This document shows, in pieces, positions 1-37,611 of a stretch of 64,000 nucleotides of DNA. Under the pieces are notes generated by a model. The model was not told the origin of the DNA, searched no databases, and saw nothing but the letters and a program-made list of their open reading frames with translations. Within the stretch, counting starts at the first letter, position 1. Every line of letters starts with the position of its first letter. Origin of the DNA: Candidatus Micrarchaeota archaeon (lineage in GTDB: Archaea; Micrarchaeota; Micrarchaeia; Micrarchaeales; Micrarchaeaceae). Location of the stretch: positions 5,823 through 69,822 of the forward strand of contig CAYSQH010000001.1 of the NCBI GenBank assembly GCA_964433165.1. The letters are read 5' to 3'. Made by a program: the position numbers and the translations under genes.

Positions 1-2105
1 ATCTCCTTTGTTATGGACAGTCCAAGCCCCGTCCCGGAGCCCTCCTGCTTTACGAGGCCCTTCTTCGGCGCCTCGTAGAACTTCCTGAAGAGCTTCCTCC
101 GGTCCTCGTCGCTTATCCCTATGCCGGTATCGGTGACCTCGCACTGCACGGTCTTCTTGCTCTTTGAGTATATCCTGACGCTGATGAAGCCCTTCTCGGT
201 GAACTTTATCGCGTTCCATATGAGGTTGACGAATACCTGTATCAGCTTGTTCGGATCTGCCATTATCCTAGGCACATCGGCCTCGACGTGCCAGTCGAAC
301 TCCAGGCGCTTGTTCTCCGCCGCCTCCCTCAACGACCTTATCGTCGGGTTGTTGCCCATCTCCGCAAGGTCGACCTCCCGCAGCTCAAGCTTCATCTTCT
401 GGGACTCGAGCTTCGCCGCGTCAAGGACCTGCTGTATTATCCCGAGCAGTCTGTTTGTCTCGTCCATTATGGTCGCCAGGTAGCTGAGCTGCTCCGGATT
501 CATCTCCCCGAATTCCCCTTTGTACATTAGCTTGGAGAATCCTATGATGTTCGTGAGGGGCGTCTTGAGCTCGTGGGATATGTTGTATATGAACTGCGAC
601 TTCAGGTTGCCTGTCGACGTGAGCTTGCTCACCTTGGCCTTCTCACTTGATAGTTCGTCCTCCAGGTTCTGGAGCATCCTCTTGGTCTCCAGCTCCTTGG
701 CGACTATGACGTAGTCCTTGGATTCCGTCCCGCTAAGGAGCCTTATCGAATGCGTCGTCTCGACCATCGTCCCCCCTTTCGTTATGAACGTCGCGTAGGA
801 ATTGTCGACCTTGCCCCCGTTCCTGACATACGCTATGTCCCTATCGAATATCGACGGGTCGCCGTACAGAGCCCTTACGTCCTTGCCTACAAGGTCGCTC
901 CTCTGGTAGCCCAGCATCTCCGCCGCAGGCAGGTTACAGTCGGAGACGTAGCCGGAAAGGCCCATGCGTATCACCATGTCAGAGGTGCTTGCCATGAAGT
1001 CCGTTAGGGCACTCTCAAGAGTCTTTGCGTAGCCCTCAGCTGTCGCATCGGAAAACAGCATCACGTAGCCGTTTTCCCATCCGGACATCGTGAAGCGGAG
1101 GTGCGCCGAGGTGCCCAATGAGGTGGAGAGGTCCAGCGAGCCGCGCACCATCCTCTGGCCCTTCTGCCTTTGCAGGAGCTCCGTCAGCTCCCCGCGCTGC
1201 CTGTCCGGGACGAGCGACAGCATCCCCTTGCCTATGAGCAGGTTCCTATCATACCCGGTCGCATGGACTATGCTCTCCGACGCGTCAGTTATCCTCAGGC
1301 TGTCGTCTAGGAACAATGCACCCGCATATGAACCAGCATCCATGAGGTTAAAGAGCGCCCTGAGCCGCGCCATGCCGGTGCGGTCGCGCAGGACCATGTG
1401 GAAGACCTTCTCGCTCGCCTGCCCAGCAGACAGTTCGTATGTCTTTATCGTGCTGCCGTCCTTTATCTGGACCTCCTGCGACTTGCCGGATTTGGAGAGC
1501 CCTGGAAGCTGCTCAGGCCTTATCCACATCATGTCCGATATACTCTTCCTTCCAGGGAACAGCCTGAGCGCCGCGTCGTTGGACTTTATTATGCGCCCGT
1601 CTATCGATACTAGCATTTGGGGATCCGCGCCGTTGAATGCGCTGCTGAAGTATCCGGCAAGCCTCATGCTCTTTTCGGTTTCCCTCCTGTAGTTAAGCGC
1701 AAGCACGCCCATGTATGCGCCGAAGAATATCCAGTCCAATGCCCCCTGGCTGAACTTGTTCTCCGATGTGGAGAGCATCTCGACTATTGACACTACCCTT
1801 CCGCCTATGACCACCGGGACCGCAGCGCAGCTCCTGAACCCCCTGCTCCTGAACTCTATGAGCTCAGGGAAGGAGGAGTACTCGCTGAGCTCGTTGTCTA
1901 TGAATGTCTTCTTGGTGTTGTACAGGTATTCGTATAGGCCGCTCCTCCCGTCGGCGTCATAGCTCCTTATCGCAACGCGCTCTATGCCAAAGGAATCCCC
2001 TATGACCCTGGAGATGCTCTGCTCGGCCTGGCCATCGGCGACGGCGTTGCCTACGGCAAAGACCAGTTCCTGAAGCATCTTCCCCATCTGGGGGCTCTCA
2101 TCCAT
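1..2105 (-). CDS. sensor histidine kinase (GAF-PAS-PAS-HisKA-HATPase_c), C-terminus cut by window edge
   Basis: The minus-strand frame is open from the ATG at 2105 to position 1. It is absent from the ORF track because there is no stop in the window. Manual translation gives the H-box ISHELKTPLTNIIGFSKLM, the N-box VNLIWNAIKFT, and the G-boxes DTGIGI and GTGLGLSITKE. The N-terminal region is GAF-like, followed by two PAS-like segments. No TM helix was seen. Confidence 0.85.
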   Translation of the reverse strand, partial: MDESPQMGKMLQELVFAVGNAVADGQAEQSISRVIGDSFGIERVAIRSYDADGRSGLYEYLYNTKKTFIDNELSEYSSFPELIEFRSRGFRSCAAVPVVIGGRVVSIVEMLSTSENKFSQGALDWIFFGAYMGVLALNYRRETEKSMRLAGYFSSAFNGADPQMLVSIDGRIIKSNDAALRLFPGRKSISDMMWIRPEQLPGLSKSGKSQEVQIKDGSTIKTYELSAGQASEKVFHMVLRDRTGMARLRALFNLMDAGSYAGALFLDDSLRITDASESIVHATGYDRNLLIGKGMLSLVPDRQRGELTELLQRQKGQRMVRGSLDLSTSLGTSAHLRFTMSGWENGYVMLFSDATAEGYAKTLESALTDFMASTSDMVIRMGLSGYVSDCNLPAAEMLGYQRSDLVGKDVRALYGDPSIFDRDIAYVRNGGKVDNSYATFITKGGTMVETTHSIRLLSGTESKDYVIVAKELETKRMLQNLEDELSSEKAKVSKLTSTGNLKSQFIYNISHELKTPLTNIIGFSKLMYKGEFGEMNPEQLSYLATIMDETNRLLGIIQQVLDAAKLESQKMKLELREVDLAEMGNNPTIRSLREAAENKRLEFDWHVEADVPRIMADPNKLIQVFVNLIWNAIKFTEKGFISVRIYSKSKKTVQCEVTDTGIGISDEDRRKLFRKFYEAPKKGLVKQEGSGTGLGLSITKE

Positions 2106-4174: not shown

Positions 4175-5876
4175 AAATGAAGATGAACCGCATCTCGTAC
4201 TTGTCATCCATTATGCAGAAGCCAAACCTTTCTAGCTGGACTATCTCCCCGTCCCGCAGGGAGGAGGCATAGGATTCTATGAGCCCCTCGCTCATAGTCA
4301 TGCTACTGTCCAGAAAGTTTCCCTCCGAGCCAACGACGTCGCCTGGGATCAGTATCCTGCAGCGCATCGAGTCCTTTTCTGTGACCCACTGCATGTTCCT
4401 CGCGCTTTCCTCCTTCGTCCTGGCTCCGGTTATCATCCCATCGGCCCGGTGCGCCATTACGTTGAACAGGCCCTTGAGGCCTATCACTTCCTCTCCGTTT
4501 ATCGAATGCGCGTCGGGGCCGCTTATGAACAGCCTGCCGTCCACATCGTACATCCTGGCGCCGAAGTCCTTCGATGGATGCATCCTGAGCATTATCTCCA
4601 TGGGCTCCATCGGTACATTAAGCCTTTCAGGGTTCTCGACATAGTACAGCCTCTTCGATATCGGGTCTATTATACTCTTGTTGTACGCGAGCAGCTTCGA
4701 GATGTCCGTGCTGCTCTCCACCATGCTCATGCCGAACCCTAGGACGAATCTACGTATCGCCTCGGGCATTATACCCCTGCGGCGAAGCGCCGCTATCGTC
4801 ACAAGCCGCGGATCGTCGTATCCGCCTATCAGCCTCTCGCTTATCAGCCTGCGTATCTCGCGCTTCTGCTTGGGCTGGCCCTTTATCGACAGCCTTGCAT
4901 GCAGGTGCACCCGAGGCTTCCTCATCCCAAGGTAGTCAAGCACCATGTCGTACAGGACGCCCCTCAGGTCATATTCCCTGGTCCTTATAGCATCTGTTAC
5001 CCCGTTGGCGGAGTCGTTTATCGGGGTATTGAAATCATATGTGGGCCACACGATGTATTTGCCACCCTGCCTGTAGTGGTGGTGCCTCTTCAGCCTCAGC
5101 ATCGTAGGGTCCCTGAGCGTGGTGTTATCCGAGCCCATGTCGCCCTTCAGTCTTATCGCTATCCTTTCCTCATCGTATTTCCCATCCAGCATCATCTGGA
5201 ACCTCTCGAGGTTCGTTTCAGGGGCATTGGACCTGTGCAGGCACTCCCTGCCGTCGAACCTGTTGCGCTTCGCCTCATCTCCAGTGCACTCGCACGCATA
5301 GGCCTTGCCCTCCTTGAGGAGCCTCCTCGCGCAGTCGTATATCATAGCCATGTTGTCGCTGGCGTAGTACTCCCTGTCGAAAGATATCCCAAGCCATTCA
5401 AGGTCCCTCTTGATTGAATCTACGAACTCCTGGGATTCCTTCTCGGGATTGGTGTCGTCGAAATAGAGGAAGGTCTTGCCTTCGTATATGCCTGCGAACT
5501 CCTTCGCCAGGAAGGCGGCGTTTGCATGGCCTATGTGTATGTATCCGCTCGGCTCCGGGGCGAACCTCGTGGCGAATGCCCCCCTCACCGCCCCGTAGAG
5601 CTCCATACGGGGCTTCGACGTGGCTGCAGCCTTAATCTCCTGCTGCTTCTCGAACTCCATCGAATAAGCCGAATACTCGCTCTCGAGGCCGTCCCTAGGT
5701 AGGGAGTTGACCTCGTCCACTATGGCACTCACCTCCGACTCCAGCTCCCTCATCGAGTCCTTTGGCACCAGCTTGGCTACCTTCGCCAGAACGTTTCCCG
5801 GTCTTGCACTCCCGTAGTCCATCGCGTTCTTGAGCGCATATTTGCGTATCTGCCCCTTCACCGTTTCTGGTATCAT
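4167..5876 (-). CDS. gltX: glutamyl-tRNA synthetase (archaeal/eukaryotic type)
   Basis: RFAPEPSGYIHIGHANAAF (HIGH motif) and class I GluRS/GlnRS architecture. Length is 569 aa. Confidence 0.93.
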   Translation of the reverse strand: MIPETVKGQIRKYALKNAMDYGSARPGNVLAKVAKLVPKDSMRELESEVSAIVDEVNSLPRDGLESEYSAYSMEFEKQQEIKAAATSKPRMELYGAVRGAFATRFAPEPSGYIHIGHANAAFLAKEFAGIYEGKTFLYFDDTNPEKESQEFVDSIKRDLEWLGISFDREYYASDNMAMIYDCARRLLKEGKAYACECTGDEAKRNRFDGRECLHRSNAPETNLERFQMMLDGKYDEERIAIRLKGDMGSDNTTLRDPTMLRLKRHHHYRQGGKYIVWPTYDFNTPINDSANGVTDAIRTREYDLRGVLYDMVLDYLGMRKPRVHLHARLSIKGQPKQKREIRRLISERLIGGYDDPRLVTIAALRRRGIMPEAIRRFVLGFGMSMVESSTDISKLLAYNKSIIDPISKRLYYVENPERLNVPMEPMEIMLRMHPSKDFGARMYDVDGRLFISGPDAHSINGEEVIGLKGLFNVMAHRADGMITGARTKEESARNMQWVTEKDSMRCRILIPGDVVGSEGNFLDSSMTMSEGLIESYASSLRDGEIVQLERFGFCIMDDKYEMRFIFISR

Positions 5877-5877
5877 T

Positions 5878-6480
5878 TCACGTACCTGGATACGACACCC
5901 TGAACTGGTTGTCGTATACGACGCCCGTACTGCCGACGAGCGCCGATACGGTCAGGTTTGCCTTGGCCCCAACCTTCGGGACATTGCCTATGAATACGGT
6001 CTGGTTCGTGCTCGGCACGACGACGGTGACCGGCTCCTTGGAGTAGTAGAGCGTCACGGTGCTTGGCAGGATCAGGTAGGTCGCCGCGCCTACGCTCACC
6101 GAGTTGCCCGCGGCCATAGCCACCTCCTGTCCAAGCGAGTAAGCGGATAGGTTGTAAAGGGCGACCTGGTAGCCGTATCCCGTGGATATGTAGCTGTCCA
6201 CGAGGCCGTTGGCCTCAAGGGACGACAGCACGTTCCCGGCAATGCCCTTCTGGGACGCATTGACCGTCAGGTTGGCCAGGCTGCCGTATCCGCTTACAGT
6301 CCCGTTGACCGAGCCGGTAACGAATACAGTCTGCACCGGCCTCACCGTGGTTGTCGTCGATCCTTGGGCGGAGGTGTTGTTGTTGCCAAATGCCAGGTAC
6401 GATGACAGGAATATCACAGCGACAAACAGGGAGCCTATGAAAAACACAATCTTTTTCGTCTTTTCTTCCATGCAAAGCAC
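5878..6480 (-). CDS. N-terminally anchored Ser/Thr/Val-rich extracellular protein with many N-x-S/T sequons
   Basis: Signal-anchor IVFFIGSLFVAVIFLSSYLAF followed by a TTTT linker. Sequons include NNTS, NGT, NLT, NAS, NLS and NQT. Its stop abuts the gltX start with a 1-nt gap. Confidence 0.6.
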   Translation of the reverse strand: MLCMEEKTKKIVFFIGSLFVAVIFLSSYLAFGNNNTSAQGSTTTTVRPVQTVFVTGSVNGTVSGYGSLANLTVNASQKGIAGNVLSSLEANGLVDSYISTGYGYQVALYNLSAYSLGQEVAMAAGNSVSVGAATYLILPSTVTLYYSKEPVTVVVPSTNQTVFIGNVPKVGAKANLTVSALVGSTGVVYDNQFRVSYPGT

Positions 6481-6568
6481 TGTTATTACGTCTGTTTCCT
6501 TTCAAAAGTATTTTATTAATTGGATTTATAATCATTCTGCTAAAAGCTACAAAACTGTGGGTAATGAC

Positions 6569-7297
6569 ATGACTTTCAAAGACGGAGACTTTCTGGAAAT
6601 AGAATACAGCGCATGGGCAGCCGCCGACGGCAGGCTGATATCTACGACTGACGAGAAGAGCGCCAAGGCTGCGGGAATACACAACGAGAAGGCCCATTAT
6701 GGACCGGTGCTTGTGATAATAGGATCGAACAGCGTGATCAGGGGGCTTGACAGGGAGCTCAGGGCAATGTCTGCTGGCGGAAGCAGGAAGATGACCTTCA
6801 AGCCGGAGGATGCGTTTGGGGACAGGCAGCAGGACCTGGTCAGGATAATGCCGTTATCGGAATTCAGGAAGCGCGACATGGAGCCGTACCTTGGGATGCA
6901 GGTAGACATAGACAACACGACCGCAACTGTAAAGAGCATAACCTCCGGGCGCGTAACCGTTGACATGAACCACCCGTATGCAGGGCAGGAAATAACATAC
7001 GAGGTAAAGGTAATCAAGGCGCTGGATTCCGAGAATGACAGGCTTGCTGCCCTTGGCAGGACCTATGGGGTCGAGCCGTCATCCTCCGAGACGAAGGGCG
7101 ATTCGATGTCCGTCAGGTATGCCAACAAGGTAAGGAAGAACGCCGACTACTTCATAGGCAAGGCGAACATGATAGCCTCGGTATTCACGTACTTCAAGGG
7201 CATCGAGAGGGTAGAGGTCACGGAGGAGTACCTCAGACCAAAGGAGAACCCCGAAAGCGAGAAGGAGAATGATGCGGAAAAGGCAGCCGAGGAATAA
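6569..7297 (+). CDS. FKBP-type peptidyl-prolyl cis-trans isomerase (long archaeal SlyD-like type)
   Basis: The true start is the internal ATG at 6569 (MTFKDGDFLEIEYSAW). The listed ORF from 6209 overlaps the opposite-strand gene. Motifs are VIRGLDRELRAMSAGG and VDMNHPYAGQEITYEVKV. Confidence 0.85.
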   Translation: MTFKDGDFLEIEYSAWAAADGRLISTTDEKSAKAAGIHNEKAHYGPVLVIIGSNSVIRGLDRELRAMSAGGSRKMTFKPEDAFGDRQQDLVRIMPLSEFRKRDMEPYLGMQVDIDNTTATVKSITSGRVTVDMNHPYAGQEITYEVKVIKALDSENDRLAALGRTYGVEPSSSETKGDSMSVRYANKVRKNADYFIGKANMIASVFTYFKGIERVEVTEEYLRPKENPESEKENDAEKAAEE

Positions 7298-12037: not shown

Positions 12038-13066
12038 TTACAGGCTCTCCAGCCCTGCTATGTACGATGGGTCGGCATGGCTCTGGTCTAGCAGGGACGA
12101 TGCGGTGCCGAACTTGGGCTTCACTCCAGTAACTATGGACATCACCCTTATCTGGTCTTTGAATGTCGGCTCAAGCCTTGCACCAAATATGACGTTCGCG
12201 TTGTCGGATATCTGCTCCGTTACTCCAGCACCGACTGAGGTCGCCTCCTGGATCGTCAGACCGGTGCCTCCTGTCACGTGGACCAGAGCACTCTTAGCAC
12301 CCTCCATGTCGACATCGAGCAGCGGATGGGCTACCGTTGACCTTACCGCCTTGTCCACCTTGTCGGTTCCCGCGCCGTGGCCTATGTTTATCATCGCGGT
12401 CCCCGAATTCCCGAGTATTGACCTTACGTCGGCATAGTCTAGGTTTATCAGGCTCGGCATCGTGATCGTGTCCGCTATCCCCCTCACCGCATTGGATGCT
12501 ATGCTGTCTATCAGGTCGAAGGCCTTCTCTATTGGAAGGTTGGGCGCGTAGCTGAGCAGCCTGTCGTTCTCGATTATTACGGTGGTATCGGCGTACTTGC
12601 TGAGCTGCTCTATGCTCCAGTCGGCCTTCTTCTTTCTGCTTCTCTCAAGCGCGAACGGGTATGTTACGAATGCGACGGCCAGTGCTCCCTCCTCCTTTGC
12701 TATCTCTGCAATGACAGGCGCTGATCCGCCACCTGTTCCGCCGCCCATTCCTGCCGCTATGAACACTATATGGTAACCGCTTATCGCCTTCCTTATCTCG
12801 TCCCTGCTCGCATCGGCAGCCTTGGCCCCCATCTCCGGGAATCCTCCTGCGCCCTGGCCCCTTGTTATCTGCCCGCCGATGAGCATCCTCTTGTGGGCAT
12901 GGACTATGCTAAGGTGCTTGGCGTCAGTGTTTATTGCTATGGTGGTGGCACTCTTTATCCCATTGGTATACAACCGGTTTACAAGGTTGCTTCCCTGCCC
13001 GCCTGCACCAACAACTGCCAGCTTAACGGTAAAATCTTCTCCCTGATCGTACATCCAATCCACCAT
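12038..13066 (-). CDS. ftsZ: cell division GTPase FtsZ (paralog A)
   Basis: Contains GAGGQGSN, the tubulin signature GMGGGTGGGSAPVIA, and NLDYADV. Confidence 0.93.
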   Translation of the reverse strand: MVDWMYDQGEDFTVKLAVVGAGGQGSNLVNRLYTNGIKSATTIAINTDAKHLSIVHAHKRMLIGGQITRGQGAGGFPEMGAKAADASRDEIRKAISGYHIVFIAAGMGGGTGGGSAPVIAEIAKEEGALAVAFVTYPFALERSRKKKADWSIEQLSKYADTTVIIENDRLLSYAPNLPIEKAFDLIDSIASNAVRGIADTITMPSLINLDYADVRSILGNSGTAMINIGHGAGTDKVDKAVRSTVAHPLLDVDMEGAKSALVHVTGGTGLTIQEATSVGAGVTEQISDNANVIFGARLEPTFKDQIRVMSIVTGVKPKFGTASSLLDQSHADPSYIAGLESL

Positions 13067-13103: not shown

Positions 13104-14171
13104 TCAGCCTACCATTTCCAGACCATCGTATGAGGTCGACTTCCTGTCCTCGAGCTTCCCGGCTATGCTTGATCCGGTTATTCCCGTGACTATCGCGACT
13201 ATCTCTATCTGGTCCTCGTATCCAGGCATAAGGCGCGCGCCCCACTTGACGTTGCTGTTGGGGTCCATCTTGTCGGATATTATCTCCCCGGCCTTGATCG
13301 CATCGCCTATCGTCATTGATGCTCCTCCAGATATGTGTATGAGCGCTCCTGATGCACCCTCGAAGTCCACATCAAGCAGCTTGTTCTTCAGCACTCCATC
13401 GGATGCGGCATCGACCTTGTTGGTCCCCCTTCCCGAGCCCACGGCTATGAATCCCACTCCGCCGTTGCCCATGATTGACCTTACGTCCGCGAAGTCTATG
13501 TTTATAAGGCTCGGCTGCGTTATCGTCCATACCAGTCCGCCGACTGCCTTAGCAAGCACCTCGTCCGCAAGGGCGAATGCCTGGTCTATCGGCAGGTTTG
13601 GCACCAGCTTTACCAGACGGTTGTTGTCCAGTATTATGACGCTGTCGCAGTTCTTCCTCAGCCTCTGGATTCCCTCCTCGGCCTTTACCTTTCGCACCCT
13701 CTCAAGGTCGAACGGGTATGTCACGAACGCCACAACTATCGCGCCCTGCTCCTTGGCTATCTGCGCCGCGACGGATATGCTTCCGGAGCCCGTTCCACCT
13801 CCCATTCCGCAGCACAGGAATGCAAGCTGCGTATTGGCGAACACCTGCTCGAGCAGGTTCCTGTCGACCTCAGCAGCCTTGGCGCCTATCGTCGGATCTC
13901 CACCTGCACCCAGGCCCTTCGTCAGGGTCCTCCCAATCATAACCTTCTTGATTCGGTCGTCGATTATCTTGAAATGCTGCGCGTCGGTGTTGACTGCCAC
14001 GAAGTCGGTTCCCTTGACTCCTATCTTGAGCAGCCGGTTCACTATGTTGCAGCCTGCGCCTCCAAAACCTGCAGTGACTATCTTAATCTCAGATGAGCTG
14101 AATTCGTCACCCACGTTCCCACTCTGTCCTCCAGATCCTCCTCCAAATACGTCGTGTACCATATCGGTCAT
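13104..14171 (-). CDS. ftsZ: cell division GTPase FtsZ (paralog B)
   Basis: Contains GFGGAGCN, GMGGGTGSGSISVAA and NIDFADV. It lies 38 nt upstream of paralog A. Confidence 0.93.
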   Translation of the reverse strand: MTDMVHDVFGGGSGGQSGNVGDEFSSSEIKIVTAGFGGAGCNIVNRLLKIGVKGTDFVAVNTDAQHFKIIDDRIKKVMIGRTLTKGLGAGGDPTIGAKAAEVDRNLLEQVFANTQLAFLCCGMGGGTGSGSISVAAQIAKEQGAIVVAFVTYPFDLERVRKVKAEEGIQRLRKNCDSVIILDNNRLVKLVPNLPIDQAFALADEVLAKAVGGLVWTITQPSLINIDFADVRSIMGNGGVGFIAVGSGRGTNKVDAASDGVLKNKLLDVDFEGASGALIHISGGASMTIGDAIKAGEIISDKMDPNSNVKWGARLMPGYEDQIEIVAIVTGITGSSIAGKLEDRKSTSYDGLEMVG

Positions 14172-19389: not shown

Positions 19390-21453
19390 ATGGCAGACGC
19401 TGCGCTGGGTGCGCTCAAGGGGAAATTCGACGATTTCTACGATGCGTTCTGCAGGGATGGAATAGCGGACATGGTAACGTCGTTCCCTGACAAGCGCAGC
19501 ATGCAGATAGACGTGAAGCTGCTGAGCAGGTTCGATCCGGAGCTGGCAAGCGAGCTCATGGAAAACCCCGACATAGTCCTGGAAGCGGCAATCGAGTCGC
19601 TTAAGGAGGAGCTTGAGGACATAGACACGAAGGATAAGGAACCGCACCCTAGGTTCTTCGGGCAGAGTGTCAATACCCCGCTGGTGCAGGACGTCGGCTC
19701 CGCATACATAGGCAAGATGATAATGCTCGATAGCCTCGTCGTTAAGAGGTCTGAGATAAATCCTAAGGTCAAGGTAGGCGTGTACAAGTGCACGTACTGC
19801 GGATACGCCCAGAAATTCAGGGTGGACCGCGACGACCTCCCGGAGCTATGCCCGCAGTGCAAGAGGAGATCCCTGAAGACGGACGCCAAGGAATCGCAGT
19901 TCATAAACATGCAGAAGCTCGCAATACAGGATCCCCTGGAGAAGCTGAGGGGGAACACCCCGACGTGGCAACTGGAGGTCTGGATAGAGGACGACCTCGT
20001 GAATACCGTAGTGCCTGGGGACAGGATAGAGCTCACAGGGATACTTAGGATAAGACCGCGCAAGAACTCTCGCGGGAAGGTTGACCCCAACCTGTACACG
20101 ATGTTCCTCGACACCGTATCGATACTGCCAAAACAGAAGGAGTTCACTGACATACCCATAACGGAGGAGCAGGAGCGGCAGATACTGGAGCTCTCGAAGA
20201 ACCCCGACATATTCAAGAAGATAGCGAAGTCTATAGTCCCATCGATATACGGGTACGACGAGATAAAGGAGGCGGTGGCGCTACAGCTCTTCGGGGGCAC
20301 GACGGGGAAGAGCCTGGTAGACGGCGGGGCGATAAGGAGCGACATGCACATATTGCTCATAGGAGATCCAGGAAGCGCAAAGACGAGGATACTGCAGGCG
20401 GTATCAAAGCTCGTGCCGAAGGGAATTTACGTAAGCGGAAAATCCATAACAGGAGGAGGGATGACCGCGGTTGCCGAAAGGGACGAGTTCTCCGAGGGCG
20501 GATGGACATTGAAGGCAGGGGCACTAGTACTGGCGAGCGGGGGCATATGCACCATCGACGAATTCGACAAGGTAGGGGACGAGGACAGGGCGGCACTCCA
20601 CGAGGCCCTGGAATCCCAGACGGTAAGCGTTGCAAAGGCTGGGATAATCGCCACGTTCACGGCAAGGGCGGCGGTGCTGGCCGCCGCAAACCCGAAATAC
20701 GGGAGATTCGACCCGAACCAATACCCCGCGGAGCAGTTCGACATACCGACAACGCTTCTCTCCAGGTTCGACCTGATATTCCCGATAAAGGACAACATGG
20801 ACGTGGAGCAGGACAAGAACATAGCTAGGCACATACTCATGCAGCACCAGGCTGCCGGGGCGCAGATAGCCGAGATTCAGGGATACGAACAGGTGGAGCT
20901 GGCACCGATAAACAGCGAGCTCCTGAGGACGTACATAGCATATGCGAGGAAGGGGATACACCCGAGGCTCAGCGAGGAGGCGTCGAACAGGATACAGGAG
21001 TACTACATAGACCTCCGCAGGATAGGGTCCAAGCAGGGAGCGGTCGCGATAACGCCGAGGCAGATAGAGGGGCTTGTCAGGCTCTCGGAGGCGAGCGCGA
21101 AGGCGAGGCTCTCAAAGATAGTGGAGGTATCAGATGCGGAGATGGCGATAAACCTGAGCGAGCACATGCTCAAGACGTTGGCGGTGGACAGGGGGGGAAG
21201 GCGCGACATAGACACGATACTCACTGGAATGCCAAGGGAGAAGATAGACAGGATGAATGCGATAACAACGATAATAAGGAGGCTTGAGGACACCGAGGGC
21301 GTGGCGAAGCTGCAGCGCGTCATGGAGGAAGCGAACAAGGAGGGGATAGACGATATGCAGGCAGGGAAATACATAAGCGAGCTGGAGCGCATAGGGGACC
21401 TCTTCAGGCCCAGGACCGGGATAGTAAGGTTGGTAAAGCACGAAAACGAATAG
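19390..21453 (+). CDS. mcm: MCM replicative helicase
   Basis: The start is the ATG at 19390 (MADAALGAL). Zinc finger CTYCG...CPQCK, Walker A GDPGSAKTR, Walker B CTIDEFDK and arginine finger SRFDLIF. Confidence 0.95.
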   Translation: MADAALGALKGKFDDFYDAFCRDGIADMVTSFPDKRSMQIDVKLLSRFDPELASELMENPDIVLEAAIESLKEELEDIDTKDKEPHPRFFGQSVNTPLVQDVGSAYIGKMIMLDSLVVKRSEINPKVKVGVYKCTYCGYAQKFRVDRDDLPELCPQCKRRSLKTDAKESQFINMQKLAIQDPLEKLRGNTPTWQLEVWIEDDLVNTVVPGDRIELTGILRIRPRKNSRGKVDPNLYTMFLDTVSILPKQKEFTDIPITEEQERQILELSKNPDIFKKIAKSIVPSIYGYDEIKEAVALQLFGGTTGKSLVDGGAIRSDMHILLIGDPGSAKTRILQAVSKLVPKGIYVSGKSITGGGMTAVAERDEFSEGGWTLKAGALVLASGGICTIDEFDKVGDEDRAALHEALESQTVSVAKAGIIATFTARAAVLAAANPKYGRFDPNQYPAEQFDIPTTLLSRFDLIFPIKDNMDVEQDKNIARHILMQHQAAGAQIAEIQGYEQVELAPINSELLRTYIAYARKGIHPRLSEEASNRIQEYYIDLRRIGSKQGAVAITPRQIEGLVRLSEASAKARLSKIVEVSDAEMAINLSEHMLKTLAVDRGGRRDIDTILTGMPREKIDRMNAITTIIRRLEDTEGVAKLQRVMEEANKEGIDDMQAGKYISELERIGDLFRPRTGIVRLVKHENE

Positions 21454-21456
21454 GTA

Positions 21457-22002
21457 GTGTGTATAATGCCGAAAGTGATACTTGTAGACGAGAATGACAG
21501 GCAGACGGGCCTTGAGGAGAAGCTCGAGGCGCACAGGAAGGGCGTTCTCCACAGGGCGGTATCCGTATACATATTCAATTCAAAGGGCGAACTGATGATG
21601 CAGCGCAGGGCGATGGGTGTCTACCATTCGGAGGGGCTGTGGTCCAACACCTGCTGCACCAACTGCTACGAGGGCGAGGGCACCGAGTGGGCCGCCCACA
21701 GGAGCCTCAGAAACGAGATGGGATTCGACTGCGAATTGGCCGAAACATTCTCCACGAGGTACAATACGCCTGTCGGTGGGGGCCTCATCGAGAACGAATA
21801 CCTGCACGTGTTTTTCGGGAGGTATGATGGCGAGCCGCGGCCTGACAGCGCTGATGTCATGGGCTGGAAGTGGATGAGCATGCCCAGCCTGATCGATGAC
21901 GCTCACAGGAACAGCGGCTCGTACACCGCATGGCTAAAGATACTCCTTGGCGGGGAGCTGCCACATCATGTTGAGAAATTCATGAAAAACCGAAATAGGT
22001 GA
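21457..22002 (+). CDS. idi: isopentenyl-diphosphate delta-isomerase, type 1 (Nudix-type)
   Basis: Collinear with E. coli Idi as remembered: VILVDENDRQTG, EAH, LHRAVSVYIFN, MQRRA, WSNTCCTNC and IENEY. Confidence 0.8.
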   Translation: MCIMPKVILVDENDRQTGLEEKLEAHRKGVLHRAVSVYIFNSKGELMMQRRAMGVYHSEGLWSNTCCTNCYEGEGTEWAAHRSLRNEMGFDCELAETFSTRYNTPVGGGLIENEYLHVFFGRYDGEPRPDSADVMGWKWMSMPSLIDDAHRNSGSYTAWLKILLGGELPHHVEKFMKNRNR

Positions 22003-22006
22003 TTGC

Positions 22007-22672
22007 ATAAAAGCGACCATAAACAGATTCATAACGTTTGAGGGGATAGACGGATGCGGCAAGACCACGCAGAGTGGCATGCTTGCCGGTCTCATAAGGA
22101 AGCATGGCATCGATGTGGTCGAGACCAAGGAGCCTATGCCAAATACTGATGTAGAGAAAAGGATCAGGAAGGAGCTCAGGGATGGCATTCCAGACCCGTT
22201 TAGGTTCCAAATGCTGAACACAGATGCCAGGAGGGCTCATGTCAATGAGGTAATAGCGCCCGCGCTTGGGAGTGGCAAGTACGTCATAACGGACAGATAC
22301 ATGATGTCTACGTTCGCTTACGGCAGGGCCCAGGGCCTTGATAATGTGAGGCTAGATGCGCTTAGGAAGGCCAATGAGGAATTTCCAAGACCGATGCTCA
22401 CGTTCCTTCTCGACATCGACCCTCTTAAATCCATGAGTAGGACAGCTGAAAGGGCCAGGAGCCTCAACACCGAACAGGACCATTTCGAGAACAAGCTGGG
22501 CTTTGTAAGGAGGGTCAGGGCGTCGTACCTCATTGAGGCGGAGCATCCCTTTGATAACGGATCCGTCCACATCATAGATGCCGACAAGAGCGTTGACGAG
22601 GTTCACAAGAACATAACGGATATTCTCAGCCTTGGGATTGGTGTTTCCAATGCGCCTGGACGAAATAGATGA
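22007..22672 (+). CDS. tmk: thymidylate kinase (start codon non-canonical or uncertain)
   Basis: The P-loop FEGIDGCGKTTQ (22037-22072) is in frame upstream of the first ATG (22079). The frame opens after the TGA at 21983-21985 and has no ATG, GTG or TTG before the P-loop. The start is provisionally placed at ATA 22007, after GGTGA (21998-22002). Confidence 0.75.
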   Translation: MKATINRFITFEGIDGCGKTTQSGMLAGLIRKHGIDVVETKEPMPNTDVEKRIRKELRDGIPDPFRFQMLNTDARRAHVNEVIAPALGSGKYVITDRYMMSTFAYGRAQGLDNVRLDALRKANEEFPRPMLTFLLDIDPLKSMSRTAERARSLNTEQDHFENKLGFVRRVRASYLIEAEHPFDNGSVHIIDADKSVDEVHKNITDILSLGIGVSNAPGRNR

Positions 22673-23003
22673 TGTTCAGATCTCAGATGATGCGGAGGGA
22701 ACTAGGGTGAAGTTCATACTCGCAGGCATCGTGGACCATCATGGCTCCAAGACCATATTCGCCGCAGCCGCCGCGGAGTACCACAAGGACATCCTTGACG
22801 GCCTGATCCACATGCACAGCGGAGTGGACATAATCCCAAAGGGCGGTGGCAGGATGCTGATCGATGAGAAAAGCAGAAAAATATTCCTGTGGGGGAGGAG
22901 CAATGCATTCGGCCAATTCAACAGGAATGCGGCTGAGAGGCTCCTGAAACGCAGGTACCCTAGCTTCAGGATACTGCTGCAGGAGCCAGAGGCAGATGCG
23001 TGA
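22650..23003 (+). CDS. PHPT1/Janus-family protein (14-kDa phosphohistidine phosphatase-like)
   Basis: The 117-aa protein is collinear with human PHPT1 as remembered. IDDVQISDDAEG matches IPDVDIDSDG, AEYHKDILD matches AEYHADIYD (catalytic His), GGGRMLIDEKSRKIFLWGRSNAFG matches [24 protein letters not shown], and RRYPSF matches AKYPDY. Confidence 0.7.
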   Translation: MRLDEIDDVQISDDAEGTRVKFILAGIVDHHGSKTIFAAAAAEYHKDILDGLIHMHSGVDIIPKGGGRMLIDEKSRKIFLWGRSNAFGQFNRNAAERLLKRRYPSFRILLQEPEADA

Positions 23004-23020
23004 CGCACCTACCGCCCTTG

Positions 23021-24286
23021 TCAGTACCAGCCCCTGTATTTCATCGCGCTAGACACCCTGTCCAGTGCTATGGTATATGCAGCCAATCTAGTGTTTATCC
23101 TCTGGCCCTTCTTCGCGTATTCCTCCTGGCATGCTATGACGTCCTTGAACGACCTTGTCATTATCGCGTCGAGGCGCTTGTAGACCTCGTCCTCAGTCCA
23201 GTAGTACCCGCTCTGGTTCTGAAGCCATTCGAAATAGGAGACTATTACGCCGCCTGAATTCACCAGAAAGTCCGGAAGCCCGAAGACCTTCCTGTCGAGC
23301 AGTATCCTGTCGGCCTCGGGAGTCACCGGCCCGTTGGCCATCTCCAGCAGTATCTTCGGCTTGACCTTGTCTGCGTTCTTCGCGGTAACCTGGTTCTCCA
23401 TTGCCGCGGGTATCAGCACGTCCACGTTCAGCTGGAGGAGCTGGTCATTGGATATCCTCTCGGCGCCGCCGTACGACTGCACCTTCCCGAACCTGTTCTT
23501 AGCCTCAAGGACCTTCGCATAGTCGAGGCCGTTCTTGTTGTATATCGCGCCATAGGAGTCGCTTATCGCAACGACCTTCGAGCCGAACATCTTCCTGGCA
23601 AGCCTAAATGCATTGCCACCAACGTTGCCGAATCCCTGTATCGCTATCGTCGTCTTCTTCAGGTTAAGCTTCTTGTACTTCGCGGCTTCTCTGAGGACAT
23701 ACATGCCGCCTGCACCAGTAGCGTCGGCCCTCCCCTTTGAGCCCCATGTCTCAAGCGGCTTGCCGGTCACGGCGCCGAACTCATTGTGTCCTGCTATCTT
23801 GCTGTACTCGTCCATTATCCATGCCATCATCTGCGGCGTAGTGTACACGTCCGGGGCAAGTATGTCTATCGAAGGGCCCATGAACCTCCATATCGCCCTG
23901 GTATATGCCCTCACTATGTTCTCAAGCTCATAGTCATTCAGCTTCTTCGGGTCGCATATGACCCCACCCTTCCCTCCTCCAAGAGGTATATCAGCTAGGG
24001 CGCACTTCCATGTCATCCATGCGGAGAGCGCCTTTACGGTATCTATGTTCTCCTCTGGGTGGAACCTTATGCCGCCCTTGCACGGGCCCCTAGCGTTGTT
24101 GTAGTGAGACCTGAACCCCCTGAATATCTGCATCTTGCCGTCACGCATCCTCGCGGGAAAAGTTACAGTGAGCACCTCCATCGGCTCCCTCAGCAATGAA
24201 TGCGCCTGCTCGTCGAGCTTCATGAGTTTTGCGGCCTCATCAAGCTGCTTCTGGGCTATCTTGAAAGGATCCAATTCTTCAGCCAT
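23021..24286 (-). CDS. gdhA: glutamate dehydrogenase
   Basis: Contains RGPCKGGIRFHPEE, GGGKGG, and GFGNVG (dinucleotide fold). The start is placed at the internal ATG at 24286 (MAEELDPFK). Confidence 0.93.
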   Translation of the reverse strand: MAEELDPFKIAQKQLDEAAKLMKLDEQAHSLLREPMEVLTVTFPARMRDGKMQIFRGFRSHYNNARGPCKGGIRFHPEENIDTVKALSAWMTWKCALADIPLGGGKGGVICDPKKLNDYELENIVRAYTRAIWRFMGPSIDILAPDVYTTPQMMAWIMDEYSKIAGHNEFGAVTGKPLETWGSKGRADATGAGGMYVLREAAKYKKLNLKKTTIAIQGFGNVGGNAFRLARKMFGSKVVAISDSYGAIYNKNGLDYAKVLEAKNRFGKVQSYGGAERISNDQLLQLNVDVLIPAAMENQVTAKNADKVKPKILLEMANGPVTPEADRILLDRKVFGLPDFLVNSGGVIVSYFEWLQNQSGYYWTEDEVYKRLDAIMTRSFKDVIACQEEYAKKGQRINTRLAAYTIALDRVSSAMKYRGWY

Positions 24287-24469
24287 GACACTACCTCGTA
24301 TTTTACACCGCACATACATCACTGGATAAAAATAATAATCATTCACATTTCCCATTTTTGTGATTTGATTGGCGGACTGCTGCGACGCTTATGCGTGCAG
24401 ATGCATTCAGCAGAATTTTAGATAAGGCTTTTAAATCTATCTTTTGAATACTACACAGAGGTGTAAGAT

Positions 24470-25057
24470 ATGTTAATTAAACCTTCCAGGAGGCAGAAAG
24501 CCCAGAGCGCAATGGAGTACCTGATGACTTACGGCTGGGCGATATTGATAATTGCGGTAGTGCTGGGAGCGTTGTTCTCCCTAGGAGTTTTCAACGGCAA
24601 GAACCTGCTCGGAAGCGCATGCGTAGCTGAGTCTGGATTCTACTGCCAGAATGCAGTGTACCACCATGGGACTGTAGGAACGACGCCGGGGGCCGGCAAC
24701 GTCCTAGTACAGATAGGCCAGAATACAGGTACATCATGGACCTCTGCAATGGTAGTATTTATACCACAGGGGACGCCAACAGGTTCTAGCGGAGTGCCAG
24801 GAACGGCGAATACGTTTGCCTCGTTCGGTAGCGAACCGGGAGCTTGGGCCAACAATACATTGATGACCTCAGGGTTGGGAAGCGGGCAACAGATCAACAT
24901 ACTGCTTCCAGTCAATGGTACTGGTCCTACGGTTTCACTTGGCTCGTCCACAGCAGCAGGTACAATATGGGCAGAGTACTGCACACAGGGAACTCTCAGT
25001 GGCGGCTGCACAGCCCAATACGCCTCGGTAGCAACATTGAACCAGAAGGCTTCGTAA
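24470..25057 (+). CDS. archaeal type IV pilin-like protein with class III signal peptide
   Basis: The N-terminus is RRQKAQSAMEYLMTYGWAILIIAVVL (QxSxEY motif plus a hydrophobic helix). The rest is Gly/Thr/Ser rich. Confidence 0.8.
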   Translation: MLIKPSRRQKAQSAMEYLMTYGWAILIIAVVLGALFSLGVFNGKNLLGSACVAESGFYCQNAVYHHGTVGTTPGAGNVLVQIGQNTGTSWTSAMVVFIPQGTPTGSSGVPGTANTFASFGSEPGAWANNTLMTSGLGSGQQINILLPVNGTGPTVSLGSSTAAGTIWAEYCTQGTLSGGCTAQYASVATLNQKAS

Positions 25058-25164: not shown

Positions 25165-25695
25165 ATGGCGACCATCAAGGCTCAAAGCGCAATGGAGTAC
25201 CTGATGACTTACGGCTGGGCGATACTGCTCATTGCAGTGGTTTTGTCTATCCTTTTCGGTCTCGGATTGTTCAATAGCAGCAGCAACACCATAAACAATT
25301 GCATTGCCTCGCCGGGCTTTATCTGCTCAGGCGCCATTTACAGCCATTCTGATGCGAATATCATAGTAACGCTAGGACAGGAAACAGGCAATTCCTGGGT
25401 GTCGGCCAACTTTGTATTTGCCCCGGAAGGTACGCAAATGAATAGCAATGGAGTGCCTGCAGTATTCCAGACCCAATCCGCGGTCAACACCGTATTAGAG
25501 AATACCGGGATGCAGAGCGGAGGTGAGCAGAACTTCTACCTGCCAGTAAATAGCATGGTCATCCCAGTAGCTATAGGAACCCCTATTCTTGGGAGTATAT
25601 GGGCAGAATATACATACTCATACAGCTCTAGCGGTGTATACCACACAGGGACATCGTATGCGCAGATTGCTACCCTCAGCTTGAAGGCCTCCTGA
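25165..25695 (+). CDS. archaeal type IV pilin-like protein with class III signal peptide (paralog)
   Basis: The N-terminus is MATIKAQSAMEYLMTYGWAILLIAVVL. A 39-nt run is identical to the first pilin gene (24506-24544 versus 25186-25224). Confidence 0.8.
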   Translation: MATIKAQSAMEYLMTYGWAILLIAVVLSILFGLGLFNSSSNTINNCIASPGFICSGAIYSHSDANIIVTLGQETGNSWVSANFVFAPEGTQMNSNGVPAVFQTQSAVNTVLENTGMQSGGEQNFYLPVNSMVIPVAIGTPILGSIWAEYTYSYSSSGVYHTGTSYAQIATLSLKAS

Positions 25696-37226: not shown

Positions 37227-37309
37227 CGCCGAAGGGGGGATTTGAACCCCCAAGTCCTTTCGGACACGGATTAGCAATCCGTTGCCCTGCCGGGTTAGGC
37301 GACTTCGGC
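37227..37309 (-). tRNA. tRNA-Ser (anticodon GCU) with a long variable arm
   Basis: Minus strand reads GCCGAAG TC GCC..GGC A ACGGA TTGCTAA TCCGT GTCCGAAAGGACTTG GGGGG TTCAAAT CCCCC CTTCGGC G. CCA is not encoded. Confidence 0.9.
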
Positions 37310-37350: not shown

Positions 37351-37611
37351 GGCAGAAAGCCGGAATTGCATCATGCGCCTCCGTGCGGGTTTGCTGTGCC
37401 TTGTCTCAGCCCTGTATCTTGAGAGCGCAGCCAAAATATGTTTAAGGTTGCTCCTTCCGGCCTGGCCTGGTTCACATATCAGGCTACCACCCAAGGCAAG
37501 ACCTCACTGCCTAAGCGCAGGCCCGTACGGCGCCCACAATACTCAACCGGCATTGGCCCGCCGAAAAGGGATTTGCGGATGGGAAACCCTTAGCTTCCCG
37601 CCTATTCTGCC
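37351..37611 (-). ncRNA. SRP RNA (7S RNA)
   Basis: The minus strand contains CCAGGCCAGGCCGGAAGGAGCAACC, close to the universally conserved helix-8 sequence CCAGGUCAGGUCCGGAAGGAAGCAGCC. The 5' GGCAGAA pairs with the 3' UUUCUGCC. An AT-rich TATA-like element lies upstream and a TTTT run downstream. Confidence 0.88.

Follow-up and report, generated by a model that had tools for sequence, protein, structure and literature searches.

A PHPT1 (Janus/Ocnus) family homolog encoded beside the dTMP kinase gene in Micrarchaeota

Very few phosphatases are dedicated to phosphohistidine. PHPT1 is among them, and the literature we searched treats it as a eukaryotic, mainly animal, enzyme and makes no mention of archaeal or bacterial members. 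The initial annotation of a 64,000-nucleotide (nt) stretch of DNA from a Candidatus Micrarchaeota archaeon (assembly GCA_964433165.1, contig CAYSQH010000001.1, positions 5,823 to 69,822 of the forward strand; this whole stretch is referred to as the window) assigned a 117-residue open reading frame (ORF) at positions 22650-23003 to this enzyme family. The locus therefore raises the question of whether an archaeon encodes a genuine PHPT1 homolog and, if so, what the protein might act on. The gene, called Ocnus here after its Pfam family, directly follows and overlaps tmk, the gene for dTMP (deoxythymidine monophosphate) kinase, and its start and stop codons bear out the proposed ORF (Table 1).

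Family membership and active site

The translated Ocnus protein matches the Pfam family PF05005 (Janus/Ocnus) with an E-value of 1.4e-14 and a score of 54.5 bits against a gathering cutoff of 23, and the match spans profile positions 2-107 of 108, which is near full length. No other Pfam family was found at E<=1, and in particular the same search did not return a His_Phos_1 domain with the RHG motif (SixA superfamily); NCBIfam gave no match to the protein. When 177,635 distinct PDB sequences were searched, three human PHPT1 sequences were the sole matches (E 1.6e-5). The collinearity with human PHPT1 over the full length and every motif pairing quoted in the initial annotation were reproduced by MAFFT and HMMER. 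An in-frame TTG codon lies upstream of the Ocnus ATG at position 22632, but the ortholog proteins all start with MRLDEIDD, indicating that ATG 22650 is the real start and that TTG 22632 is unused. The ratio of nonsynonymous to synonymous substitution rates (dN/dS) of Ocnus was 0.20-0.31 in comparison with close orthologs for which dS is unsaturated, and that of tmk was 0.13-0.19; the Ocnus gene is under purifying selection.

An AlphaFold2 model of the window protein was built on a 65-sequence family alignment. The model has a mean predicted local distance difference test score (pLDDT) of 89.6 and a predicted template modeling score (pTM) of 0.79, and its seven strands and two helices agree with the alpha/beta fold of PHPT1 (six strands, two helices). 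In a Foldseek search of the PDB with this model, human PHPT1 entries were the only significant matches (E 7e-10 to 5e-8, template modeling (TM) score 0.77-0.87, root-mean-square deviation (rmsd) 1.5-3.2 Å), and the next match had an E-value of ~1e-2. The matches to entries 2nmm and 2hw4 had TM scores of 0.84/0.87 and an rmsd of 1.5 Å. A viral fold search with the same model gave nothing at E<=0.001, the best match having an E-value of 2e-3, a TM score of 0.42 and an rmsd of 8.9 Å. Judged by its profile match and predicted fold, the window gene is a genuine PHPT1 (Janus/Ocnus) homolog in an archaeon.

In human PHPT1, Lys21, His53, Ala54, Arg78, Ser94 and Ala96 are experimentally supported catalytic-site residues, and Glu51, Tyr52, Tyr93 and Met95 bind the substrate (PMC4817053). 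His53 is the general base that activates water, no phospho-enzyme intermediate is formed, and His102 is reported to be important for activity (PMC11277029). Lys21, His53, Arg78, Ser94 and Ala96 of the human enzyme map to Lys21, His45, Arg68, Ser84 and Ala86 of the window protein, and Glu51 and Tyr52 map to Glu43 and Tyr44. The columns of the catalytic His (His45, in AEYHKDI) and of Ser84 are invariant in 93/93 domain sequences, and the columns of Lys21, the GGG loop and Gly98 are nearly invariant in the same set. Lys21 is present in all 22 members of the Micrarchaeota clade described below, and the Arg68 column holds Arg or Lys in 16 of these 22. In this alignment, the core catalytic residues (His, Ser, Lys, Arg) are intact in the window protein. 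The histidine of the AEYH motif is conserved in all orthologs, so that this check, like the profile search and the structural superposition that the initial annotation had also suggested, came out in favor of the assignment.

Other positions weigh against an active enzyme of the PHPT1 type. In 6 of the 22 clade members, Trp or Leu replaces the Arg78 equivalent. The His102 equivalent is Arg in the window protein and Tyr or Phe in the Micrarchaeota clade; it is His in 24/24 eukaryote-like sequences, indicating that His102 is a trait of the eukaryotic sub-family and not of the whole family. The Arg45 equivalent (window position 38) is Ala in the window protein and its two closest orthologs, and is Arg or Lys in 16 of the 22 clade members. 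The W-x-N-D-G-Y tail at the C-terminus is missing in the window protein and in all prokaryote-type clades. Both Arg45 and this tail matter for the activity of animal PHPT1. In addition, proteins of the Micrarchaeota clade carry three inserted residues in a hairpin close to the N-terminus and lack the 29-39 loop of human PHPT1.

Taking both sides together, we consider that the gene probably encodes a functional PHPT1-type phosphoramidate hydrolase, acting on phosphohistidine and possibly phospholysine. By analogy with human PHPT1, His45 would serve as the general base, activating a water molecule that attacks the phosphoryl group of the substrate directly, and the reaction would proceed through no phospho-enzyme intermediate. 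By homology, the phosphate would be cradled by the backbone NH groups of His45, Lys46 and Ala86, the hydroxyl of Ser84 and the side chains of Lys21 and Arg68.

The window protein is ~29% identical to human PHPT1 (PDB 2hw4, 2nmm, 2ai6), with which it shares the fold (TM 0.84-0.87), the catalytic His in A-E-Y-H-x-D-I, the GGGR loop, the S-x-A-[FY]-G phosphate loop and Lys21. Apart from the residues, loop, tail and insertion listed above, it differs from the human protein in its setting, as the window gene lies in an archaeal operon after tmk and its orthologs can be ankyrin-tailed or fused to Tmk. The insect proteins Janus A/B and Ocnus, founders of PF05005, belong to the same Pfam family and are likewise small single-domain proteins of ~110-130 amino acids (aa). 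They are products of animal sex-regulated genes, and their enzymatic role is unclear. SixA uses an RHG motif and a phospho-His enzyme intermediate. Its fold and mechanism are unrelated to those of the window protein, and the likeness lies in the proposed activity class, dephosphorylation of phosphohistidine proteins in prokaryotes. SixA is described in two reports as a bacterial phosphohistidine phosphatase that acts on proteins (PMC7948535, PMC6282199). Within the PHPT1 family, the compact prokaryotic versions make it possible to tell a minimal set of catalytic residues (Lys, His, GGG[R/K], Ser) apart from eukaryotic additions (His102 and the tail).

Distribution of the family

An exhaustive phmmer search over 1.84 billion representatives returned 88 matches at E<=1e-3, of which one (P0054) is an RCC1-repeat false positive. 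A word-indexed homology search found only two orthologs, each 75% identical, its profile version added few, and a genome scan with the single protein as query gave no matches. Genomes were also searched with a hand-made degenerate DNA pattern (K-F-I ... GGG ... I-x-x-W-G), which was validated on known loci. This pattern misses members without W-G or K-F-I, and the 4 GTDB genomes and 8 JGI contigs that it recovered are lower bounds. Chance matches accounted for 28 of the 32 pattern matches in GTDB and 48 of the 56 in metagenomes. Thirteen bacterial pattern matches (L014, L015, L017, L019, L022, L023, L033, L045 and others) consist of an identical 203-nt span unrelated to Ocnus. This span encodes a conserved membrane-transporter segment, KFI...SAALFGVGYILGPRI...MVGGGLLS...IIPAI..W, and its agreement with the pattern is coincidental.

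Similarity clustering of the matches yielded a Micrarchaeota clade of ~22 representatives, several prokaryote-type groups and a eukaryote-like group with human PHPT1. Three GTDB loci with this gene are from Candidatus Micrarchaeota or Micrarchaeaceae, and NCBI names relatives of the MCM protein of the window likewise, which places the host in Micrarchaeota, a DPANN group. A bacterial genomic context was verified for two prokaryote-type groups. In group c5, the gene of P0010, from a bacterial metagenome-assembled genome (MAG), adjoins Lnt, KsgA, UvrD and a LysM-M23 peptidase, and in group c8, the gene of L039, from a MAG labeled Saccharibacteria, adjoins LemA, a TPM-domain protein, a TrmB-like regulator and a GlpQ-like protein. 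Proteins of both groups carry the same domain with the invariant His, Ser and GGG and are single-domain proteins of ~100-120 aa, but they are only 24-29% identical to the Micrarchaeota clade, have no tmk/idi neighborhood and lack the N-terminal insertion and the FG-x-PDY motif. The survey of phyletic distribution suggested in the initial annotation thus located archaeal occurrence in one Micrarchaeota clade, and its statement that the family is essentially eukaryotic, although in line with the searched literature, is contradicted by this clade and by the prokaryote-type clades.

Identity between the Micrarchaeota clade and each of the other groups is 24-29%; the type found in the candidate phyla radiation (CPR) is marginally the nearest, and eukaryotes are no nearer. 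This similar distance to all groups argues for an independent deep branch and against a recent eukaryotic import. The clade is confined to one Micrarchaeota sub-group, in which MCM is at least ~78% identical to that of the window. None of the Micrarchaeota-type proteins for which source names were returned is functionally named, and since there is no NCBIfam model either, the gene is in effect without annotation in public genomes. The window protein adds a new archaeal member, restricted to one lineage, to a known enzyme family, and the Tmk fusion and the ankyrin tails are new architectures. The picture of the family thereby changes to one that includes a DPANN clade and separate bacterial/CPR-type clades.

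Gene neighborhood and candidate substrates

We compared 13 independent Ocnus loci, namely those of the window, L001/L002, L004, L008, L009, L010, L012, L013, L035, L043, L053, L059 and L104. The order MCM, Idi (isopentenyl-diphosphate isomerase), Tmk where present, and Ocnus, followed by convergent GDH (glutamate dehydrogenase), was found in 13/13 loci, and tmk is counted as lying directly before Ocnus on the same strand in ten of them, L059 included. The overlap of Ocnus with the 3' end of tmk that had been reported for the window, 23 nt ending at the tmk stop codon, is kept in close orthologs: the same 23-nt overlap occurs in L001-L005, and tmk and Ocnus overlap by either 23 nt or 4 nt in several loci. 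In one locus (P0004/L009) tmk and Ocnus form a single in-frame fusion, in which each of the two Pfam domains scores above its cutoff. Because the overlap is conserved and one Tmk::Ocnus fusion exists, the co-transcription with tmk suggested in the initial annotation is plausible. Six long orthologs, which form a sub-branch, have C-terminal ankyrin-like tails, three of which pass the Ank_2 cutoff.

The conservation of the genes in this string is uneven. Across the loci, identity to the window is ~80% for MCM, ~75% for GDH and ~60% for Idi, and falls to 31-44% for Tmk and 30-45% for Ocnus. Set against the ~80% identity of MCM, this fast divergence indicates that the many Ocnus clusters reflect rapid evolution in a fairly narrow group of Micrarchaeota. 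The space between MCM and GDH (21453-23021 in the window) occurs in several states in the window and its relatives: empty, NUDIX only, NUDIX-Ocnus, NUDIX-Tmk-Ocnus and NUDIX-Tmk::Ocnus. In L105 (MCM 76% identical) there is only MCM-NUDIX-GDH with otherwise identical flanks, and in L102 (75%, on a 940-kb contig) and L103 (70%, on a 1.2-Mb contig) MCM stands directly against GDH. These differing contents between identical flanks show that the MCM/GDH slot is a variable site. No tmk without Ocnus was found at this slot among the loci examined. A strict three-gene Idi-Tmk-Ocnus cassette was considered and had to be softened, as L105 has Idi alone and L008 and L053 have Idi-Ocnus without tmk.

These comparisons point to co-expression, and possibly physical partnership, of Ocnus with dTMP kinase, and the link to nucleotide metabolism is the best substrate lead. 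Ocnus would be co-translated with Tmk and would act on a protein substrate; the ankyrin tails suggest that it has protein partners. The overlap, the single fusion, the matching divergence rates of Tmk and Ocnus and the ankyrin tails together lead us to rank a phosphohistidine protein tied to nucleotide phosphorylation above a distant sensor kinase as the likelier substrate, for example an NDK-type phosphohistidine intermediate or proteins phosphorylated by such an enzyme. The same loci also hold evidence on the other side. The slot lacks tmk in two of the 13 loci (L008 and L053), the tmk-like ORF of L059 runs on the opposite strand, and the Tmk::Ocnus fusion was seen on one 3-kb contig only. 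The gene string mixes replication, isoprenoid and nucleotide functions, and the gene order of the region is generally conserved in Micrarchaeota, so that adjacency alone is weak functional evidence.

As one possible substrate, the initial annotation had named the histidine kinase at one end of the window. This kinase is real, lies on the minus strand and is a cytoplasmic HisKA protein, and a phmmer search with CheY (E<=10) found no receiver domain in the window ORFs, as had been stated; its description as an orphan, however, reaches beyond the 64 kb of the window, which is too short to show this. PHPT1 does dephosphorylate a bacterial kinase, CheA, in vitro (PMC11277029), and a dedicated two-component phosphatase that resets the autophosphorylated GAF-PAS-PAS kinase would fit with this activity. 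Yet the kinase is ~20.5 kb away from Ocnus, on the opposite strand and separated from it by ~20 unrelated housekeeping genes, the conserved neighbors of Ocnus in the 13 loci are Idi and Tmk, and no histidine kinase was found within the fetched flanks of these loci. Apart from its biochemical plausibility, nothing in these loci speaks for such a kinase-reset role, which we regard as quite unlikely. A role closer to Tmk itself deserves more weight, although it is doubtful: Ocnus might be an accessory protein that either binds dTMP kinase and regulates it or hydrolyzes a small P-N compound or nucleotide derivative in dTTP supply, and not a protein phosphatase of general use. That Ocnus follows tmk immediately in ten loci and is fused to it in one more, that tmk never occurs without Ocnus at this locus and that the two proteins diverge at matching rates all speak for this role, as does the fact that PHPT1 also hydrolyzes free phosphoramidate. 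It is harder to reconcile with the two loci that keep Ocnus without an adjacent tmk, with the single observation of the fusion and with the ankyrin tails, which suggest protein partners; moreover, to our knowledge dTMP kinase works without a phospho-enzyme intermediate.

Two further explanations concern the nature of the gene rather than its substrate. The protein could have kept the fold as a non-catalytic binding or scaffold protein of the Janus type, as the insect Janus/Ocnus paralogs possibly have. The missing tail and the absence of His102 and, in the window protein, Arg45 would be expected of such a protein, and its fast divergence, down to 30-45% identity where the MCMs are ~80% identical, could be read in the same way. 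The catalytic His, Ser, GGG loop and Lys21 are nevertheless invariant or nearly so in every clade, which makes a pseudo-enzyme unlikely, and the dN/dS of 0.2-0.3 also counts against it; we judge this explanation very improbable. Since the family is known mainly from eukaryotes, the gene might also be an artefact of eukaryotic contamination, mis-assembly or very recent transfer from a eukaryote. It overlaps, however, a tmk gene in an archaeal context, the same synteny recurs in 13 independent contigs that stem from different samples and some of which are 238-624 kb long, and the clade is equally far (24-29%) from the eukaryote-like and the bacterial-type groups. Conserved synteny excludes contamination, and the chance of any such artefact is negligible.

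We return to a phosphatase of phosphohistidine proteins linked to nucleotide phosphorylation as the preferred reading. In an extended version of it, Ocnus would be the phosphatase partner in an ancient module for nucleotide phosphorylation; it would work physically with dTMP kinase, as hinted by the overlap and the fusion, and would discharge phosphohistidine or phospholysine formed by an NDK-type kinase along the path dTMP->dTDP->dTTP. We consider this extension unlikely; if it were true, the antagonism of NDPK and PHPT1 in animal signaling would go back to a pair of prokaryotic housekeeping enzymes, and the origin of PHPT1 would lie in prokaryotes, among ultra-small symbionts (DPANN archaea, CPR bacteria). 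The placement behind tmk, the Tmk fusion and the ankyrin tails offer testable leads to the natural substrate, which is poorly defined even for the human enzyme.

Local gene map and other features of the window

The genes around Ocnus are closely packed. MCM and idi are separated by 3 nt and idi and tmk by 4 nt, and 17 nt lie between the stop codons of Ocnus and GDH. A GGTG Shine-Dalgarno-like motif is located 9-12 nt upstream of the Ocnus ATG. A scan for sigma-70 promoters and terminators, a type of scan unsuited to archaea, gave background levels only. A programmed +1 frameshift that would yield a Tmk-Ocnus fusion in the window was considered and rejected, as there is neither a slippery motif nor other support.

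Table 1. Positions of Ocnus, its neighbors and the histidine kinase in the window.
Feature	Position	Strand	Remarks
GAF-PAS-PAS-HisKA-HATPase_c histidine kinase	1-2105	-	C-terminus cut by the window edge
MCM replicative helicase	19390-21453	+	Head of the same-strand gene string; start approximate, set by ortholog length
Type-1 isopentenyl-diphosphate isomerase (Idi, NUDIX fold)	21457-22002	+	NF002995, 133.5 bits against a cutoff of 127; Pfam NUDIX
tmk (dTMP kinase)	22007-22672	+	221 aa from ATA 22007; TIGR00041, 124 bits against 83; Pfam Thymidylate_kin
tmk/Ocnus overlap	22650-22672	+	23 nt; Ocnus in the +1 frame relative to tmk; tmk stop 22670-22672
Ocnus (PHPT1 family)	22650-23003	+	ATG 22650, stop 23001-23003, 117 aa
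Ocnus codon for Lys21	22710-22712	+	
Ocnus codon for His45	22782-22784	+	Catalytic His
Ocnus codons for Gly65-Gly67 and Arg68	22842-22853	+	
Ocnus codon for Ser84	22899-22901	+	
Glutamate dehydrogenase (GDH)	23021-24355	-	Convergent; far edge of the variable MCM/GDH slot

The codon at the position of the tmk start is ATA in the window, as against ATG (L001) and GTG (L004) in the two closest orthologs. The P-loop FEGIDGCGKTT is encoded downstream of this ATA and ahead of the first canonical start codon, at 22079. The ATA could reflect either non-canonical initiation, a start-codon mutation or a sequencing error. Both Idi and Tmk of the window match bacterial solved structures best. The best PDB matches of Idi are bacterial Idi enzymes, and Tmk matches the Thermus, Pseudomonas and E. 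coli enzymes at ~E 1e-20 and the Sulfolobus enzyme at 2e-9. These matches are hints that the inserted slot genes Idi and Tmk may be of bacterial origin.

The window as a whole is archaeal housekeeping DNA, with genes for fibrillarin, Rpo7, two FtsZ proteins, ATCase, MetRS, MCM, Dph2 and Rad50, and further genes for Cdc6, proteasome alpha, SBDS, exosome subunits, SecY and SRP54. The FtsZ paralogs are in tandem on the minus strand (12038-13066 and 13104-14171), each with Tubulin and FtsZ_C domains. The Rfam model for bacterial small signal recognition particle (SRP) RNA matches 37406-37503 on the minus strand with 43 bits (gathering 40), next to a tRNA gene on the same strand (37227-37309); the short model probably matches the S-domain, a conserved part of a longer SRP RNA of the archaeal kind. 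The products of two tandem genes on the plus strand (24470-25057 and 25165-25695) carry a class-III signal sequence of the archaeal, type IV pilin-like kind, QSAMEYLMTYGWAIL. No Pfam family matches them, and both genes are kept downstream of GDH in all related loci.

Among close Micrarchaeota relatives of the MCM protein (the set of P0168, P0180, P0186, P0144 and P0166), some are ~1055 aa long and contain inteins (PF14528, PF14890), and others are labeled as proteins of bacterial MAGs (Baltobacteraceae, Acidoferrum). Such labels on Micrarchaeota MCMs indicate that contigs of Micrarchaeota were wrongly sorted into bacterial bins, and the Saccharibacteria label of L039 therefore needs caution, though its gene context looks bacterial. 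In the ENA contig L001, MCM is split into overlapping ORFs of 442 aa and 259 aa (4740-6804). The NCBI contig L002, which encodes an identical Ocnus protein, has an intact MCM of 687 aa, so the split in L001 is likely an assembly frameshift.

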